NCBI GenBank assembly: GCA_040753615.1
Contig: JBFMDO010000077.1
Span: 418-64,417 of the forward strand
Length of the DNA: 64,000 nucleotides
Origin: Nitrospirota bacterium
GTDB taxonomy: Bacteria > Nitrospirota > Thermodesulfovibrionia > Thermodesulfovibrionales > SM23-35
Direction of reading: 5' to 3'
Part shown: positions 6,409 to 36,229 of the stretch, in pieces
Layout of the letters: each line of letters starts with the position of its first letter
Position numbering within the stretch: the first letter of the stretch is position 1
Program-made: the position numbers and the translations under genes
Notes under the pieces: model-generated
What the model saw: only the letters and a program-made list of their open reading frames with translations
Told to the model about the DNA's origin: nothing
The model's database searches: none

Positions 6409-7330
6409 GTCGGTCCTCTACTATTTGGTATTTTTTGTATCTTATATACTCAAATAAGCCCCAAAGACTCCCTGCTGTTATAGAAATAAACCATGCTAAG
6501 GAAATTGCAGTTGCAACATCAGGATCAACTCCTACCAGACCGAAAAATATTATAAAGGCACCTTCTCTTACACCAATGCCGGAAACAGATATAGGCAATG
6601 TAGAAAAAAGGATTATGAGTGGCAGAAAGAGCATAAATGTAAAAAGGGGAATGTGTTGCCCAATGCCAATCGCGAGGATATATACAGCAGCTATACCAGA
6701 AACCTGAACTATCACGGATAATGCGAGGGTATTTATGAGAATCTTTTTCTGGTTGCGGTATGTATGAAAATAACCGTAAAAATCTGAGAGTATTTTTATT
6801 CTTCTGCCAAGGCGTAAACCGAATATCAAAAGGCTTACACCGATGAAACATACCACAACAAGAGGCAAAAGCCATACTGCATCTGTCCCTTGAAGATATT
6901 TGTATCCAAAGGGGAAGGCAATAATACTTATTACCATTAACACCACAAAGCCGAGATATCTGTCCATAAAAATCGAGGCAAGGGTTAAACCACCTTTACC
7001 TGTTGCCTGATATAAATAAATGCCTTTAACAGCATCCCCTCCAATTATCCCGGGGAGAAAGATATTAAAGAAAGAGCCTATCATATACAGTGAAAAAAGC
7101 CTTTTGATAGAAACTCTTTCTCCCTTAAGAAGCAGCTTCCATCTTATTGTGGATATAAACTGTGCAAATAAATAGAGAAATACAGCAGAGATAAACGCTA
7201 AAAGATTTAGACCTTTTAGTATGGATAAAATCCTTTCAGTTCCTGTTCTGGATAAAACAATATAAAGCAACGCAAAGCTTACGGTAAGTTTGAGTATAAA
7301 GAGGAATATTCTATTTGCTTTCAGGGCCAA
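6398..7330 (-). CDS. Lysylphosphatidylglycerol-synthase TM domain / flippase-like membrane protein
   Basis: Polytopic; FNIFLPGIIGGDAVK, FMDR, LPISVSGIGVREG. Confidence 0.85.
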   Translation of the reverse strand: MALKANRIFLFILKLTVSFALLYIVLSRTGTERILSILKGLNLLAFISAVFLYLFAQFISTIRWKLLLKGERVSIKRLFSLYMIGSFFNIFLPGIIGGDAVKGIYLYQATGKGGLTLASIFMDRYLGFVVLMVISIIAFPFGYKYLQGTDAVWLLPLVVVCFIGVSLLIFGLRLGRRIKILSDFYGYFHTYRNQKKILINTLALSVIVQVSGIAAVYILAIGIGQHIPLFTFMLFLPLIILFSTLPISVSGIGVREGAFIIFFGLVGVDPDVATAISLAWFISITAGSLWGLFEYIRYKKYQIVEDRLDT

Positions 7331-8258
7331 GTATCTTCTTAATCACATATATGGGTTTTCTCTGGCTTTCGTGATAAACCCTCACGATCATTTCTCCGAG
7401 AAGTCCCATCCCGATTAACTGAATTCCAACAATAATCAGAAGGACACCGAGCAGAAGAAGCGGCCTTCCTCCAATAGCCTGTCCAAAAAAGAGTTTATCT
7501 GCAGCGAGATATAAACATATAAGAAATCCGAGAAATCCGTTTAATACACCTATTGGTCCAAAAAACTGTATGGGTTTGGTAGAAAAACTCTGAAGAAATT
7601 TTACAGTAATCAAATCCAGAACTACTTTTATTGTCCGGGATATGCCATATTTTGATTTACCCCTCAGTCTCGGATAATGGACTGTCTCTACCTCTGCAAC
7701 CCTTACACCATACCAGCTTGCAACAGCAGGGATAAACCTGTGCATCTCTCCGTAGAGTTTCAGATTTTTTATTACATCCCGTCTGTATGCCTTAAGGGAA
7801 CATCCGTAATCGTGAAGCTTTACGCCTGTTACCTTGCTTATTAGCCAGTTCGCTATTATGGAGGGAAACCTTCTTGAAAAAAATGGGTCCTTCCTCTTTT
7901 TTCTCCATCCGCTCACGAGGTCATTATCTTTTATAAGTTTCAGCAATTTGGGAATGTCTGCAGGATCATTCTGCAGGTCGCCATCCATTGTCACAATCAC
8001 ATCTCCTCGCGAGAAATCAAAACCTGCTGCAAACGCAGCAGTCTGTCCAAAATTGCGCCTCAGACTGAGTATAACTACATTTTTATCATTTACCTGAATC
8101 TCCTCAAGGATAGAAAGTGTCTTATCTGTACTGCCATCATCCACAAAGACTATTTCGTATTCTTTGTTTAAAGAATCCAAAACTGCCTTAAGTTTTTCAT
8201 AAAGCAACCGGGTATTTTCTTCTTCATTGTAAAGTGGTATAACTACAGATAGTGTCAT
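7311..8258 (-). CDS. GT2 polyprenyl-phosphate glycosyltransferase (ArnC/GtrB-like)
   Basis: SVVIPLYNEE, VDDGSTD, RNFGQTAA, MDGDLQNDP, C-terminal TM pair; probable start at MTLSVV. Confidence 0.9.
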   Translation of the reverse strand: MTLSVVIPLYNEEENTRLLYEKLKAVLDSLNKEYEIVFVDDGSTDKTLSILEEIQVNDKNVVILSLRRNFGQTAAFAAGFDFSRGDVIVTMDGDLQNDPADIPKLLKLIKDNDLVSGWRKKRKDPFFSRRFPSIIANWLISKVTGVKLHDYGCSLKAYRRDVIKNLKLYGEMHRFIPAVASWYGVRVAEVETVHYPRLRGKSKYGISRTIKVVLDLITVKFLQSFSTKPIQFFGPIGVLNGFLGFLICLYLAADKLFFGQAIGGRPLLLLGVLLIIVGIQLIGMGLLGEMIVRVYHESQRKPIYVIKKILGPESK

Positions 8259-8316: not shown

Positions 8317-10422
8317 TCAATTATCTTCTATCTTAACCACAAGAACATCTGTGCTTCTCAGAGGATCCCTCTCTTTAAATAGTTGCTGATATTTAATATC
8401 AAAATCTTTAAGGTCATCCTCTGTACTAACAAGTAAGGCTCCCTGAGGCATTGAAATAATGTCTCTTGCCTTTATTTTTATAATCTTCTTTCTTATATAA
8501 TATTCAAAAGCAGGGTCATAATATTTATAAGAATAAACTTCATTAATAGGAACTTCTGATTCTCTGGCTTGTTCCCTTACAACATTGGCGATCTTCTGGG
8601 GCATGAAGTATTTTTTTGAAAGAGGCATAAGCCACCCTGAAAGAATCAATGAAAAGATTATGGCTGAAGCCGCAATTATGTGATAGGTATATTTATTAAA
8701 AACTATTGAGATAATGCCACCGATCAAAAATGGAAACCCGAGGAATATTACCCATGGCATTAATTCGCCTGCATATTTTTTACCCAGGATAAATAAGACG
8801 GTAGAAATTGCAAGACCAAATATACTCAGGAAAGCAACAGAAATCTTTTTATAAGGCATCCCTTCAGAAAGATATTTTGCAGTAAGGATAGAAATTGCAG
8901 GATAAACAGGTATTAGGTATTGAGGCAGTTTTGTAGCGCTTATCGAGTAGAATATGACATGCAATACAACCCACAGGAAGAGAAATAATATCAAAGGCTC
9001 TCTTTTTTCTTTATATGAAGAAATCAATGTTTGAACTATAAAAAAAGACCACGGGGAAAAGCCTACCAGTAGGAATAAAAGCGTAATAAAGAAAGGCCCA
9101 CTGGGTCCCTCAAGGGATGAGAAGAATCTCTCTATATTATGATGTAGGAAGAAGCCGGATGCAAACTCTCCGCCTGTCTTAATTGAAACGATAACATACC
9201 ATGGAATGGCAATAATACCTACTATTAGATAACCAACTATATGTCTTCCTGTTAAAAATATCCTGAGGGATTTAATTCCCTGCAGCAAAGACCAAATTTT
9301 TCTATCAGTCTTATAATTATTCAACACTTCCCTGAAGAATATAAAAGCAGAAGCTACGCCGAACGGCAGAATAAAACCCACAGGACCTTTTGTAAGTACA
9401 GCCAAACCGAGTGATACATAAAAGATCAAAATATATTTATAGGCATTGTTAACTATTCCGAGATAAAAAGAAAAAAGCGCTAACGTGGAGAAGAATATAA
9501 GATAAGGATCAGGTACAGCCATCCTGAAAATCAGAAAACCATACAGGGCAGTAGGTAATAACAAAGCTGAGATTAAAGCGGTCTTTCTGCCCAGAAGCCT
9601 TAGAACAAAAAGATAGACCAACAAGACTGTAGCGATACCTATTATGGCGCTTCCAGCCCTGCTTGAAAACTCGCTTACGCCAAAGAGTTTATACCCGAGG
9701 ATAAAAACCCAGTAATGCAGGGGGGGTTTGTCTGTCCTTAACTCATAATTATATGTTGGCACCAAGAAGTCTGACCGTTCTAACATCTCCCTCGCAGCTT
9801 CTGCATTCCGCGCCTCATCCACAATATAAAAGGGAAATGCGTCCAGTCTGTAGAAAAAAAGAACAGCCGGGATTAAAAGTGTAACAAGAAGCTCTTTTTT
9901 ATATTTACTGAAAAAATCATTGTATTTTATGGAAACATACCCTGCTAAATAGCCTATTATCCCTCCAATCACTATGTCCAGAGGAAAATGTGCCCCAACA
10001 TAAATCCTTGAATATCCGACTGCCAATGCGAGTATTAATAAAAAAATCTTTAGATATCCTGTCTTTCTGTACGAAAGGACATAAAAAAGTGCCATAGCAG
10101 TGGCTGTATGCCCTGAAGGAAAAGAATCTGTCCTGAGTATTTCTCCCACAATATGAACATCATCGAATAAGGCTGCTGGCCGAGGGACATCCGAGAGAAA
10201 TTTTATAATCTGAACTATGATACCAGACATTAAATATGAAGAAACTAAAGGCAATATTTTCTCTCTTTCAATTTTATACAGGACAAGGATAATGGGTATA
10301 ATTATCCAGCCGCTCCCCAGATAGGTTATAAAATAGAAAATAATATCAAGGAAAGAATTGTTATGGTTATTTATCAGCTTAAAAAGCCCTGAGTTTAAAT
10401 CAAAGAATTCTATGTTAAACAT
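8317..10422 (-). CDS. PAP2 phosphatase fused to an ArnT/GT83-family glycosyltransferase
   Basis: N-terminal PAP2 (DVPRP, SFPSGHT, SRIYVGAHFPLDI); ArnT motifs DEARNAEAAREM, DKPPLHYW, LTKGPVG, KLPQYLIP. Confidence 0.88.
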   Translation of the reverse strand: MFNIEFFDLNSGLFKLINNHNNSFLDIIFYFITYLGSGWIIIPIILVLYKIEREKILPLVSSYLMSGIIVQIIKFLSDVPRPAALFDDVHIVGEILRTDSFPSGHTATAMALFYVLSYRKTGYLKIFLLILALAVGYSRIYVGAHFPLDIVIGGIIGYLAGYVSIKYNDFFSKYKKELLVTLLIPAVLFFYRLDAFPFYIVDEARNAEAAREMLERSDFLVPTYNYELRTDKPPLHYWVFILGYKLFGVSEFSSRAGSAIIGIATVLLVYLFVLRLLGRKTALISALLLPTALYGFLIFRMAVPDPYLIFFSTLALFSFYLGIVNNAYKYILIFYVSLGLAVLTKGPVGFILPFGVASAFIFFREVLNNYKTDRKIWSLLQGIKSLRIFLTGRHIVGYLIVGIIAIPWYVIVSIKTGGEFASGFFLHHNIERFFSSLEGPSGPFFITLLFLLVGFSPWSFFIVQTLISSYKEKREPLILFLFLWVVLHVIFYSISATKLPQYLIPVYPAISILTAKYLSEGMPYKKISVAFLSIFGLAISTVLFILGKKYAGELMPWVIFLGFPFLIGGIISIVFNKYTYHIIAASAIIFSLILSGWLMPLSKKYFMPQKIANVVREQARESEVPINEVYSYKYYDPAFEYYIRKKIIKIKARDIISMPQGALLVSTEDDLKDFDIKYQQLFKERDPLRSTDVLVVKIEDN

Positions 10423-31666: not shown

Positions 31667-31704
31667 ACAAGAAAAGGGCGATGAATTCATCGCCCTTTTC
31701 TTGT
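31667..31704. terminator. Bidirectional terminator, perfect 38-bp palindrome
   Basis: ACAAGAAAAGGGCGATGAATTCATCGCCCTTTTCTTGT between convergent stop codons. Confidence 0.85.
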
Positions 31705-31720
31705 CTTATGCCCATCCTTT

Positions 31721-32191
31721 TCACCCATCCTCTACTGGTTTATCAATCTCCATAAGGTCTTTAATCCCTTCTTTGAGACCCTTTCTGTATTTTAAAATTT
31801 TCAAGACTGCCTTTTTCGCCTCGGGCAGGTCGTATTTCAGGATATCTATTATTTCAGCAAGTTCAGGGTCTTCTATATAATCAGCAGAGCTTTCAGCAAC
31901 TACTGAGGGAATTTCTTCCTTTTTGTAAGATGCTGGTTCTCCTGAAAATACTAATATTTTTTTTCCATCCTTTTCTATGTATTTAGTTGTTAACTCCCCT
32001 GAGATTAGCCATGACATATCATATTGATGCTCTTCGCAAAATCGAAATAAAACATCATGGGGTATTGTCTTGCGAATACGCCATGTTGCTAATGTATTTG
32101 GCTTGACATTAAGCATTTTAGCCAAATCCGTATCCTTTTTAATTCCTTTTAACTGCTTAATCTTATCGAGGATTTCATCTATCGTTCTCAT
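31721..32191 (-). CDS. Phage CI-like HTH repressor without a C-terminal S24 peptidase
   Basis: IDEILDKIKQLKGIKKDTDLAKMLNVKPNTLATWRIRKTIP...MSWLISGE, typical of the Phage_CI_repr HTH. Confidence 0.85.
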   Translation of the reverse strand: MRTIDEILDKIKQLKGIKKDTDLAKMLNVKPNTLATWRIRKTIPHDVLFRFCEEHQYDMSWLISGELTTKYIEKDGKKILVFSGEPASYKKEEIPSVVAESSADYIEDPELAEIIDILKYDLPEAKKAVLKILKYRKGLKEGIKDLMEIDKPVEDG

Positions 32192-32205
32192 ATTTCATAT
32201 TTTTC

Positions 32206-32234
32206 TTGACATATTATTCGCATTTATATATAAT
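32206..32234 (+). promoter_or_regulatory. Consensus sigma70 promoter divergent from the CI-like gene
   Basis: TTGACA (32206-32211), 17 bp, TATAAT (32229-32234). Confidence 0.85.
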
Positions 32235-32245
32235 CATCCGTAAAT

Positions 32246-32380
32246 ATGTTGATTTTTGAGATATTAACACATCTTAAATTTCTCAACGTATATGAACCCG
32301 CTATTCAACAGCACCGTGATTTTAAAAAATTTTGGATTAAATCTCAATGGGAAAATATAGTCTTTTTGAAGGAGATCTAA
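32246..32380 (+). CDS. Possible 44-aa ORF, first gene after the promoter
   Basis: MLIFEILTHLKFLNVYEPAIQQHRDFKKFWIKSQWENIVFLKEI; ATG about 5 nt after the expected start site; stop abuts the next ATG. Confidence 0.3.
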   Translation: MLIFEILTHLKFLNVYEPAIQQHRDFKKFWIKSQWENIVFLKEI

Positions 32381-32509
32381 ATGGAAATTAAATGTCCCTT
32401 TTGTGGCTCCAGCGAGGTGTATGCAGTTGACCAGTTTCTCAACGTGGTTAAGTTCAGATGTTTTCATTGTAATGAAATCTTTTTTATATCGGTTCAAAAA
32501 TCAGAATGA
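32381..32509 (+). CDS. 42-aa zinc-ribbon microprotein (not in the ORF track)
   Basis: AAGGAG RBS; MEIKCPFCGSSEVYAVDQFLNVVKFRCFHCNEIFFISVQKSE with two CxxC. Confidence 0.75.
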   Translation: MEIKCPFCGSSEVYAVDQFLNVVKFRCFHCNEIFFISVQKSE

Positions 32510-32525
32510 CGTTTTTCGTTTGTTT

Positions 32526-33581
32526 CTATCTCTTTATCTCTTTTTTAACCTTCTGGATGGTATCCTGTACTCTGCATTGATAAAAATCATGAAGTCTTTC
32601 TAATATTTCAGGATGTATTTCGAATATATTTTTGAGAATAGACTTATCAAATTCCAATACTTCGAGAGCATCAATAGCTATTACAGAGGCTGTTCTTGGC
32701 CTTCCGGTAATAAACGCAACTTCACCAAATAAATCGCCAGCAGAGAGGTTTGCGAGTTCTATTTCTTTGCCGAGAATATGTGCAACAACCTTTGCATGTC
32801 CTGATTTTATGAAAAAGATTGAATCACCTGTATCCCCTTCTTTCAAAACTGTCTTGCCAGAAGAGTATATTTTGGGATTTATTGTTTTAATCAAAAATTT
32901 TATTTCCTCTTCGGGTAGAGATGAAAATATTGTTGGAGCGAATAAAGTGGATTCTTTAGGAGGAGATGTCAGAGAAGATTCTTCAGGGGAATAAGAGGTT
33001 CTCTCGATAAAACCTTCTACTCCCTCTGAGGGCTGAACTTCACTCTTTTCGGTTTCCTCAATGTCCATCCACATACTCTGTTCTGGTTCTTTTGCTGCTT
33101 CAATGGGAGTCCTGCTTTCTATCTTTATTTCTTGCACTGTCTCTTTTGTGCCGATAGAATGTCTGATTTCCTCAAGGGAAGGTATTTTTTTGGAAGTCTC
33201 GATTTCCATTATCAATCTCTTAGATTGCTTTATTGCCTCTGAATTATCAGGGTCAAGCCGCAGTATTACCTTATAAAGCGCAAGTGCCTTCTGAATAAAA
33301 CCCTGTTTTTCATGAATCCACGCAGACTTATGATATGCCTTTATTGCCTTGAATGTTTCACCCATCCTCTGATATACATCACCCAGTTTTAATTGAACCT
33401 GCGGGTTGTCCTGTTCAATATTATTAAGATGTTCTAAAGATGCCTTAGCCTGTTCCCAATCTTCCTTCTTTATAGCATTAAAGTATACATCCCAGCACTT
33501 TTTGCTTGTATCATGCCTCATTGAAGCTGATTCCTTTATTAATTTATATAAAAAATGTTTTTCCCTTGGTTCTTTGCTCAC
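32526..33581 (-). CDS. TPR + cyclic-nucleotide-binding domain protein
   Basis: N-terminal TPR (LKLGDVYQRMGE...); C-terminal cNMP domain EGDTGDSIFFIKSG, FGEVAFITGRPRTASV. Confidence 0.88.
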   Translation of the reverse strand: MSKEPREKHFLYKLIKESASMRHDTSKKCWDVYFNAIKKEDWEQAKASLEHLNNIEQDNPQVQLKLGDVYQRMGETFKAIKAYHKSAWIHEKQGFIQKALALYKVILRLDPDNSEAIKQSKRLIMEIETSKKIPSLEEIRHSIGTKETVQEIKIESRTPIEAAKEPEQSMWMDIEETEKSEVQPSEGVEGFIERTSYSPEESSLTSPPKESTLFAPTIFSSLPEEEIKFLIKTINPKIYSSGKTVLKEGDTGDSIFFIKSGHAKVVAHILGKEIELANLSAGDLFGEVAFITGRPRTASVIAIDALEVLEFDKSILKNIFEIHPEILERLHDFYQCRVQDTIQKVKKEIKR

Positions 33582-35710: not shown

Positions 35711-35935
35711 TTGACTGGGTTGGAGCCGAAAACTATCTTACCGATTCATGCAAGATACGGAAGTTATTCTATAGCGATAAGAATTGAGGACTTTGCAATA
35801 CTGGAAGGATATTTGCCGCCGAAGGCATTAGGACTTGTTATAGAATGGGCAGATATTCATAAGGAGGAACTATCGAAGGATTGGGAACTGGCAAAAAATC
35901 AGAAGCCCTTGTTCCTAATAGAACCCCTAAAATAA
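35711..35935 (+). pseudogene. 5'-truncated DUF4160 (TA toxin-like) gene
   Basis: HARYG...EGYLPPKALGLVIEWADIHKEEL..DWELAK; lacks the usual MPxISRFxGI N-terminus; only a weak TTG start. Confidence 0.75.
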
Positions 35936-35944
35936 GGAGGTGCA

Positions 35945-36229
35945 ATGTATTATGATGTTTCAGAAGCACGGCATATTGAAGGATATAAGCTTGAGCTTGT
36001 CTTTGAAAATGGCAAGAAAGGAATTATTGATTTGAGGGAGTATAGACATAAAGGCGGTGTTTTTAACCGCTTCTCCGACATTGAATATTTTAAACAGTTC
36101 TACGTGAACAAAGAAATCGGAACATTATGCTGGCCCGATGGTCTGGATATCGCACCTGAGACACTTTATCATGAGGCAACAGGCGAGCCTCTGCCCGCAT
36201 GGGTGAGACCGGAAAAAGTAGTGGCTTAA
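35945..36229 (+). CDS. DUF2442 protein (partner of DUF4160)
   Basis: AAGGAGGT RBS; YKLELVFENG, GGVF, GTLCWPDGLDIAPETLY. Confidence 0.88.
   Translation: MYYDVSEARHIEGYKLELVFENGKKGIIDLREYRHKGGVFNRFSDIEYFKQFYVNKEIGTLCWPDGLDIAPETLYHEATGEPLPAWVRPEKVVA

Follow-up and report, generated by a model that had tools for sequence, protein, structure and literature searches.

Orphan repressors left by prophages are known to provide phage immunity at little cost and to give rise to host regulators. In P2- and 186-like phages, lytic and lysogenic promoters that face each other or overlap are the rule (PMC7498355). B3-like transposable phages also have overlapping or opposed promoters, and a distal promoter drives the repressor gene (PMC9936078). 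In the cryptic prophage Qin of Escherichia coli, DicA represses the promoter dicBp; DicB is a small toxic protein that is also phage-protective (10.1101/2023.04.14.536235, 10.1101/708461). The locus described here lies near the middle of a 64-kb stretch of DNA (the window, meaning the whole stretch that was analysed) from a Nitrospirota bacterium, a groundwater organism with a genome of 2.29 Mb. It is an insertion that carries a repressor gene, a divergent consensus promoter and a small zinc-ribbon open reading frame (ORF). The insertion probably derives from a Mu-like transposable phage, as a piece of its immunity region, and its orphan repressor would hold the cognate early promoter (Pe) shut. 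The features that carry this interpretation are:

31705-32525, no strand: lineage-specific insertion of about 821 bp, between a hairpin and the stop codon of a TPR-cNMP gene

31721-32191, minus strand: intact repressor gene (156 amino acids), assigned by PF07022, a seven-member family alignment and a match to 2fjr

32206-32234, plus strand: consensus early promoter (Pe-like), TTGACA-17-TATAAT, a 12/12 match whose -35 box is kept in phage loci

32216-32225, plus strand: ATTCGCATTT in the promoter spacer, a 10-mer found identically in the spacer of phage locus L036

The immunity region of Mu- and B3-like phages comprises c, Pe and ner (e.g. Pseudomonas phage Fc02, PMC9936078). The locus resembles it in four ways: full-length homologues of the repressor stand in the same setting, the repressor gene diverges from the early operon, the control region is very short, and the -35 box and spacer are conserved with one phage. 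It differs in having no ner, transposase, ATPase or identifiable ends; a zinc-ribbon ORF takes the place of ner, and 821 bp are left.

Viral, metagenome and genome contigs were scanned for relatives of the repressor, and six loci contain a full-length one: L036 (the same contig as L092), L037, L038, L039, L040 and L108. All six are early regions of Mu-like transposable phages, and in all six the repressor gene is divergent from a gene for a Ner-like helix-turn-helix (HTH) protein of 63 to 84 amino acids. The Ner-like protein belongs to PF13693 (HTH_35) in L036, L038 and L039; the two that were tested against PHROGs match as transcriptional repressors. A gene of about 160 codons comes next in L036, L037, L039 and L108; of these, only the L039 copy was tested, and it matches phrog_2345. 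A transposase of 544 to 755 amino acids (rve-type or MuA-like) is encoded in L038, L039, L092 and L108, while L037 and L040 end before this point. The Pfam rve core is recognised in L038, L039 and L092, the last with a score just below the cut-off (32.1 against 32.6 bits), while L038 and L039 also match the Mu transposase C-terminal domain. L092 has an AAA ATPase gene further on as well. Four of the loci are IMG/VR contigs (L036, L037, L038 and L108), and in these no more than about 2 kb separate the repressor gene from a contig end, the position that c occupies in Mu-type genomes.

The L092/L036 contig is the closest phage relative of the locus. In a blastn comparison, L036 and positions 31913-32225 of the window are 75% identical over 315 nt. 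The homology covers the N-terminal half of the repressor, its ATG and the -35 box, runs into the promoter spacer and then stops. Both have CTTGACA 14 nt from the start codon of the repressor gene, and their intergenic regions measure 52 and 54 bp. The insertion has a phage repressor gene beside the promoter that its family adjoins in phages.

The repressor consists of a 186-CI-type HTH domain (residues 1-66), a beta hairpin, a disordered linker and a C-terminal region of three helices. Residues 7-66 match PF07022 (Phage_CI_repr) with 41.3 bits against a cut-off of 22 (E 2e-10). A family profile matches PDB entry 2fjr (186 CI) with E 5.4e-8 over residues 6-70, and the same structure is the top Foldseek match; its N-terminal domain is the sole solved relative of the repressor. 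An AlphaFold model from the seven-sequence alignment gives a five-helix HTH domain with a predicted local distance difference test score (pLDDT) of about 90, the beta hairpin and a disordered linker at residues 85-107. The three C-terminal helices are modelled with low confidence (pLDDT 55-62), and a fold search with them gave no match. Residues 85-156 are unlike the oligomerisation domain of 186 CI, and the alignment with 2fjr ends at residue 70.

The relationship to 186 CI (2FJR; PMC7498355, PMC3675496) is thus one of a homologous N-terminal HTH domain and of a gene start that adjoins the lytic promoter. Unlike the 186/P2-like phages, the locus has a different repressor C-terminus (residues 85-156), no Apl/Cox-type gene and no integrase, and its relatives are transposable phages.

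In a large protein collection, only six other clusters of this repressor were found, with 39-66% identity covering the HTH domain and a conserved C-terminal stretch (consensus D.ELAEI.DIL..DLPEAK..VLK.LKYRKG.KEG). The subfamily is rare, with seven clusters among 5.8 billion. The two closest homologues, P0002 (66% identity) and P0003 (57%), are encoded on short ENA contigs. Together these proteins form a small family of repressors that serves Mu-like phages and combines a 186-CI-type HTH domain with a new C-terminal domain. The repressor of the window is full-length and has the family residue in all invariant columns of the seven-member alignment. Its codon score of 0.37 is host-like and above the mean for real genes of the genome. 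Compared with the L036 homologue, it has a ratio of nonsynonymous to synonymous substitution rates (dN/dS) of 0.18, with synonymous sites near saturation. A genome-wide profile search gave one PF07022 match only, so that the host has no second gene of this family. The fragment keeps an intact c-type repressor, with its 186-CI-like HTH domain and family-specific helical C-terminus, together with Pe.

The promoter is the only 12/12 match to the sigma-70 consensus in the region. It consists of TTGACA at 32206-32211, a 17-nt spacer and TATAAT at 32229-32234, and transcription is predicted to start near 32241-32242 on the plus strand. From base composition, 1.3 perfect promoters with a 17-nt spacer would be expected in the 2.29-Mb genome, and there are four. 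This one is not a chance match, because two phage homologues share its -35 box. It is the putative early promoter of a Mu-like phage. The first-pass annotation had conjectured from the consensus sequence a potent product under tight repression. Eleven perfect TTGACA-N16-18-TATAAT sites are present genome-wide, about three times the composition-based expectation; the others are those in C56, C70 and C73 with a 17-nt spacer and seven with spacers of 16 or 18 nt.

The best operator candidate is ATTCGCATTT in the spacer, as suggested by its conservation with L036. It has no other exact copy in the 64-kb window. At the equivalent place, L108 has CTTGACA followed by AATCCCAATTT. A search of viral contigs for TTGACA followed after 3-4 nt by ATTCGCATTT gave 52 matches, among which only the known L036 contig encodes a homologue of the repressor. 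A first-pass annotation of this DNA, made from the sequence alone, had instead proposed CATATT as operator half-sites, at 32196, 32210 and (inverted) 32243. These copies are all present, as is a fourth at 32189, and the motif is locally dense (four in 60 nt against 75 in 64 kb). However, the 32210 copy is absent from the closest phage and the 32243 copy is outside the homologous stretch; it is ATTCGCATTT that is conserved, and CATATT was set aside as an operator. In two other phage loci, whose repressors are distant relatives, the control regions are long and contain repeats: at least seven copies of TTTGTAAAC/GTTTACAAA in L038 (5780-6000) and three copies of GCGTCAGAGTTCAAA in L039 (5700-5905). 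The repeats are probably the operator arrays of these phages; the window and L036, by contrast, have a control region of 52-54 bp.

The first-pass annotation had also described a CI-type HTH gene that starts 14 nt from a divergent TTGACA-17-TATAAT promoter, lacks a clear ribosome-binding site and encodes no S24 domain, and had called the arrangement a lambda-style switch. The description is accurate. Between the repressor ATG (32191) and the -35 box of the divergent promoter there are 14 nt, no clear Shine-Dalgarno (SD) sequence precedes the ATG (AAGAAAAATATGAAAT ATG), and a Pfam search of the 156-residue protein found HTH families alone and no S24 peptidase domain. The comparison with lambda does not hold. 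No acceptable promoter fits within the 14-nt gap; there is therefore no back-to-back promoter similar to PRM, and the promoter of the repressor gene must overlap or face the early promoter. A lambda-type switch was rejected because back-to-back lytic and lysogenic promoters and an S24 domain are both missing, and a repressor of the lambda CI/LexA type because there is no S24 autocleavage domain. The promoter layout is more like that of 186, P2 and Mu than that of lambda. Given this geometry, the repressor promoter should lie to the right of 32206, or the gene should be read by transcription coming from the TPR-cNMP gene. On the repressor strand, a consensus scan finds promoter candidates downstream, at 32347-32319 and 32381-32354. 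The first of these is:

32319-32347, minus strand: candidate repressor promoter, TTGAGA-17-TAAAAT, a 10/12 match from the consensus scan only, which faces Pe from downstream

The site of insertion can be recognised by comparison with relatives. Two features delimit it, the second being a gene for a protein with tetratricopeptide repeats (TPR) and a cyclic nucleotide (cNMP)-binding domain:

31667-31704, no strand: perfect GC-rich hairpin of 19+19 nt, found by repeat search and 100% complementary, with equivalents in six relatives

32526-33581, minus strand: TPR/cNMP-binding gene, the chromosomal flank, with orthologues in the family

In six of six related genomes of the same family, which represent five genera, the TPR-cNMP gene is adjacent to the gene for an OB protein, with only a hairpin terminator between them. 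Both genes converge on this one GC-rich hairpin in every case. The OB gene, the TPR-cNMP gene, a dapL-type aminotransferase gene and folK are ordered as in the window at all six fetched loci, while recN and acyP fall inside the fetched stretch in three of them. Orthologues of the TPR-cNMP gene are found in many genomes of the same family. Since the six relatives have the OB gene beside the TPR-cNMP gene with the hairpin alone, the module is a lineage-specific insertion. The flanks are ordinary chromosomal genes, as the first-pass annotation had held, and they are syntenic in the relatives; the site is empty there, with no prophage in any of the six. The GC content of the insertion is 33.9%, against 38.5% for the genome. 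The repressor gene was not found in 36 searched genomes of the same family, none of which is of the same genus, and a full-length repressor was not found among 400 genomes sampled across the phylum.

The insertion is closely trimmed. The gap between the hairpin and the repressor stop codon is 16 nt, as is the gap between the stop codons of the zinc-ribbon ORF and the TPR-cNMP gene. Bidirectional termination after the OB gene was the ancestral role of the hairpin at 31667-31704, which is now also just downstream of the repressor gene. Rfam gave sub-threshold matches only, all of them on this hairpin. The insertion has parted the TPR-cNMP gene from its ancestral terminator, and the next terminator on the same strand is beyond the repressor gene; the repressor gene may therefore be co-transcribed with the TPR-cNMP gene.

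The arrangement is supported by an independent Logan contig from a groundwater metagenome, probably the source sample and the only sequencing run found to contain the stretch. This contig runs from the interior of the hairpin through the repressor gene and the zinc-ribbon ORF into the TPR-cNMP gene. It covers 31675-32900 and beyond at a depth of 37.9, compared with 35.8 for the left flank. As the contig bridges the right junction at a depth like that of the flank, this junction is not an assembly artefact. On the left side, the Logan contigs end in the palindrome and overlap there, as is usual for de Bruijn assemblers. A separate 34-nt unitig is present at the 38-nt palindrome (31667-31704), and the summed depth is about 70 where overlapping contigs are added. 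The rise in depth at the hairpin is typical assembler behaviour and gives no sign of a second copy.

These observations suggest how the fragment could work. The repressor would bind an operator that overlaps Pe, for which ATTCGCATTT in the spacer is the best candidate, and so keep Pe shut. It would itself be transcribed from a promoter that faces or overlaps Pe, or by read-through from the TPR-cNMP gene; the latter, having lost its own terminator, would now share the hairpin beyond the repressor gene. In trans, the repressor could silence the Pe of related incoming phages and so provide superinfection immunity. The -35 box and the spacer element common to the locus and L036 would lend this its only indirect support. 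Such immunity may explain why the repressor is intact and retained in a 2.3-Mb genome. If Pe were to fire, transcription would start near 32241; the transcript would have either a leader of about 140 nt or a nearly leaderless 44-codon ORF, followed by the zinc-ribbon gene. It would continue antisense into the TPR-cNMP gene because no terminator intervenes. The predicted leader RNA folds no better than shuffled sequences (z = -0.76). The best guess for the zinc-ribbon protein is a small nucleic-acid-binding early protein of a phage, encoded at the ner position.

Three features lie on the early side of the promoter. The 44-codon ORF, the 42-codon ORF (CPFC...CFHC) and the strong ribosome-binding site before the latter had been reported by the first-pass annotation and are present:

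32246-32380, plus strand: ORF of 44 amino acids, a doubtful gene with no family match and a low recognition score

32369-32374, plus strand: AAGGAG Shine-Dalgarno sequence, 6 nt before the zinc-ribbon ATG

32381-32509, plus strand: zinc-ribbon protein of 42 amino acids (CPFCG...RCFHC), modelled by AlphaFold as a ribbon, with four cysteines and a strong SD; an orphan

The 42-codon ORF looks like a real gene, with predicted translation, because it combines a four-cysteine motif, a strong SD and a pLDDT of 94. In the six frames of the genome there are 6748 ORFs of 30-60 codons that start with ATG. The pattern CxxC-x10-25-CxxC is found in 10 of them and a strong SD before 96; two have both, a ferredoxin gene and the zinc-ribbon ORF. 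In a single-sequence AlphaFold model, the protein has three strands and a pLDDT of 94.3, and its language-model recognition score is within the range of natural proteins.

The fold is a generic one. Atlas neighbours of the protein are generic small zinc ribbons (score about 0.9). The nearest folds, all with weak E-values, are the N-terminal DNA-binding ribbon of NrdR, Elf1, TFIIS and many small uncharacterised phage proteins. The best match among solved structures is the NrdR zinc ribbon, with a query-normalised template modelling (TM) score of 0.73 and E 0.05. Small zinc ribbons such as those of NrdR (N-terminal), Elf1/TFIIS, Mu Com and the IS1595/IS1 N-terminus share its three-stranded CPxCG...CxxC form of about 40 residues; unlike them, the protein of the window reaches no family threshold. 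PF12760 (Zn_ribbon_IS1595) is the best Pfam match, at 24.3 bits under a cut-off of 25.4, and PF10122 (Mu Com) scores 13.8 bits against a cut-off of 22.9 (E 0.04). The first-pass annotation had itself named a lack of homologues as speaking against its account of this protein, and none was found. A word-based search gave nothing, and an exhaustive HMMER search of 1.84 billion representative proteins gave seven matches, all to long proteins with at least two zinc-ribbon stretches and none a homologue. Matches in a tblastn search of 50,697 phage records had E-values of 0.05 or worse. No terminator is present between the stop codon of the zinc-ribbon ORF and that of the convergent TPR-cNMP gene.

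The 44-codon ORF is doubtful and may be the 5' leader of the zinc-ribbon gene. Its language-model recognition score is low (1293), its codon score intermediate (0.11), and neither Pfam nor PHROGs gives a family match. The two ORFs are in one frame, with one TAA between them (TAAATG). They could be two coupled genes, a leader and a gene, or one gene of 87 codons with a nonsense codon. When the 87-residue read-through was searched with X at the stop, there was no gain in Pfam or PHROGs and no homologue, so that the idea of a broken gene is neither supported nor excluded. An antisense ORF of 77 codons (32264-32497, minus strand) was rejected as spurious; it has a TTG start, no SD and a codon score of 0.04.

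Several observations weigh against the derivation of the whole insertion from a phage immunity region. The DNA to the right of the -10 box, from about 32235, matches none of the phage loci; a phage origin of the zinc-ribbon gene is therefore an assumption. The codon score of that gene (0.02) is atypical, at the 2.6th percentile of real gene pieces; this fits a foreign origin and is uninformative alone. No phage ends, target-site duplication or other phage gene mark how the fragment arrived, and the 16 nt of non-coding DNA on each side leave no room for Mu-type end sequences.

Searches for further parts of a phage were likewise negative. A decayed ner to the right of the promoter was considered and rejected, as tblastn with Ner and other early proteins, and blastn, found nothing in 32150-32600. 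The insertion has no blastn match among cultured phages. PF13693 (HTH_35) has no match in the whole host genome. PF09299 (Mu transposase C-terminal) also has none, a weak negative since it was found in 0 of 14 control genomes too and no general rve/DDE search was made. A Mu-like prophage was accordingly rejected, there being no ner, no Mu-type transposase C-terminal domain and no identifiable ends. No flanking repeats give a signature of insertion or deletion: the best direct repeat (15/18 nt) is at chance level, and no terminal inverted repeat or flanking duplication above chance is seen in the 16 nt that flank the ORFs per side.

The fragment could also be a neutral scar in decay, the remainder of a transposable prophage or of imported phage DNA that was almost wholly deleted, now functionless and not yet purged. 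The first-pass annotation had suggested a minimal prophage scar. Its view of the origin stands, as homology to the immunity region of transposable phages extends over the repressor and the left half of the promoter. Neutrality is a separate matter. It would agree with a right half that is AT-rich (30% GC) and has weak codon scores, and with the lack of homologues for the zinc-ribbon and 44-codon ORFs. However, nothing is broken: the repressor is full-length with its family residues kept, the promoter is a 12/12 match, and the zinc-ribbon ORF keeps its SD and four cysteines. In addition, only 16 nt are left outside the ORFs at either end of the fragment, which in a genome of 2.3 Mb resembles retained working parts more than random decay. 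A neutral scar is consequently unlikely, although it is the strongest of the rivals to a working phage repressor with its cognate promoter.

The remaining explanations give the micro-ORFs a larger role. A consensus promoter directly before small ORFs recalls the cryptic-prophage precedent of DicA, dicBp and DicB (10.1101/2023.04.14.536235, 10.1101/708461), and the repressor could be kept lest this promoter be unleashed on a toxic microprotein, either the zinc-ribbon protein or the 44-residue peptide. Derepression would also lead to antisense transcription of the TPR-cNMP gene, since the zinc-ribbon ORF is not followed by a terminator. Such a guarded toxin is improbable, as one point mutation could disarm a harmful promoter and retention of the repressor is not forced. 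There is also no evidence of toxicity and no homologue among known toxins, with Pfam and PHROGs giving generic zinc-ribbon matches only (PADLOC was not searched). A type II toxin-antitoxin pair was rejected: the genes are divergent and neither Pfam nor PHROGs gives a toxin family match. The least supported rival, to which we would give the smallest chance of all, is a complete domesticated two-protein switch in which the zinc ribbon substitutes for Cro or Ner and antisense transcription across the TPR-cNMP gene is under bistable control. The gene is at the ner position, its product is closest among solved structures to a DNA-binding ribbon, and transcription from the early promoter would enter a host gene. 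Against this, the zinc-ribbon fold is generic, with weak matches only (E 0.05), conservation is lacking, and another such pair was not found among the 1.84 billion representatives or the 400 genomes of the phylum. It is very improbable that the locus is a self-contained bistable switch of less than 1 kb, in which the 42-residue protein replaces Ner or Cro and the 'on' state of Pe, antisense to the TPR-cNMP gene, gives heritable on/off control. If this were true, a phage-derived circuit under 1 kb would exert heritable control over a host signalling protein.

As a probable fragment of a phage immunity region, the element belongs with the cryptic-prophage immunity remnants and orphan repressors, of which it is an extreme minimal example. 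Like the dicA-dicC-dicBF region of Qin (10.1101/2023.04.14.536235; 10.1101/708461), it has a leftover CI-like repressor that would shut a strong promoter for a small product. Unlike the locus, Qin is multi-kilobase and has the Cro-like DicC, a small RNA and an antirepressor; the window has one repressor and one or two micro-ORFs. Such a remnant could hardly be smaller: its 821 bp contain a single repressor, a single consensus promoter and a single micro-gene. Its compactness is unusual, but as a prophage remnant it is of an ordinary kind and opens no new category. Its source lineage of transposable phages is little studied, and its host is uncultivated. The compact repressor-promoter pair is directly testable in a laboratory host.

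Some further differences were seen in the phage relatives and in the neighbourhood of the locus. The early operon of L092 contains a gene for a dual-specificity/tyrosine phosphatase-like protein of 152 amino acids (6972-7430, minus strand; PF03162, E 2e-11). The same contig encodes a protein of 193 amino acids (8448-9029, minus strand) that resembles two tandem Ner-like modules. The gene acyP directly adjoins the OB gene in the window and in G011, but the two are about 4 kb apart in both genomes of genus g11 (L031/G010 and L033/G030), which makes this a second variable spot in an otherwise conserved block. Further along the window, at 35711-36229, the ORF listing includes a pair of small genes similar to DUF4160 and DUF2442.

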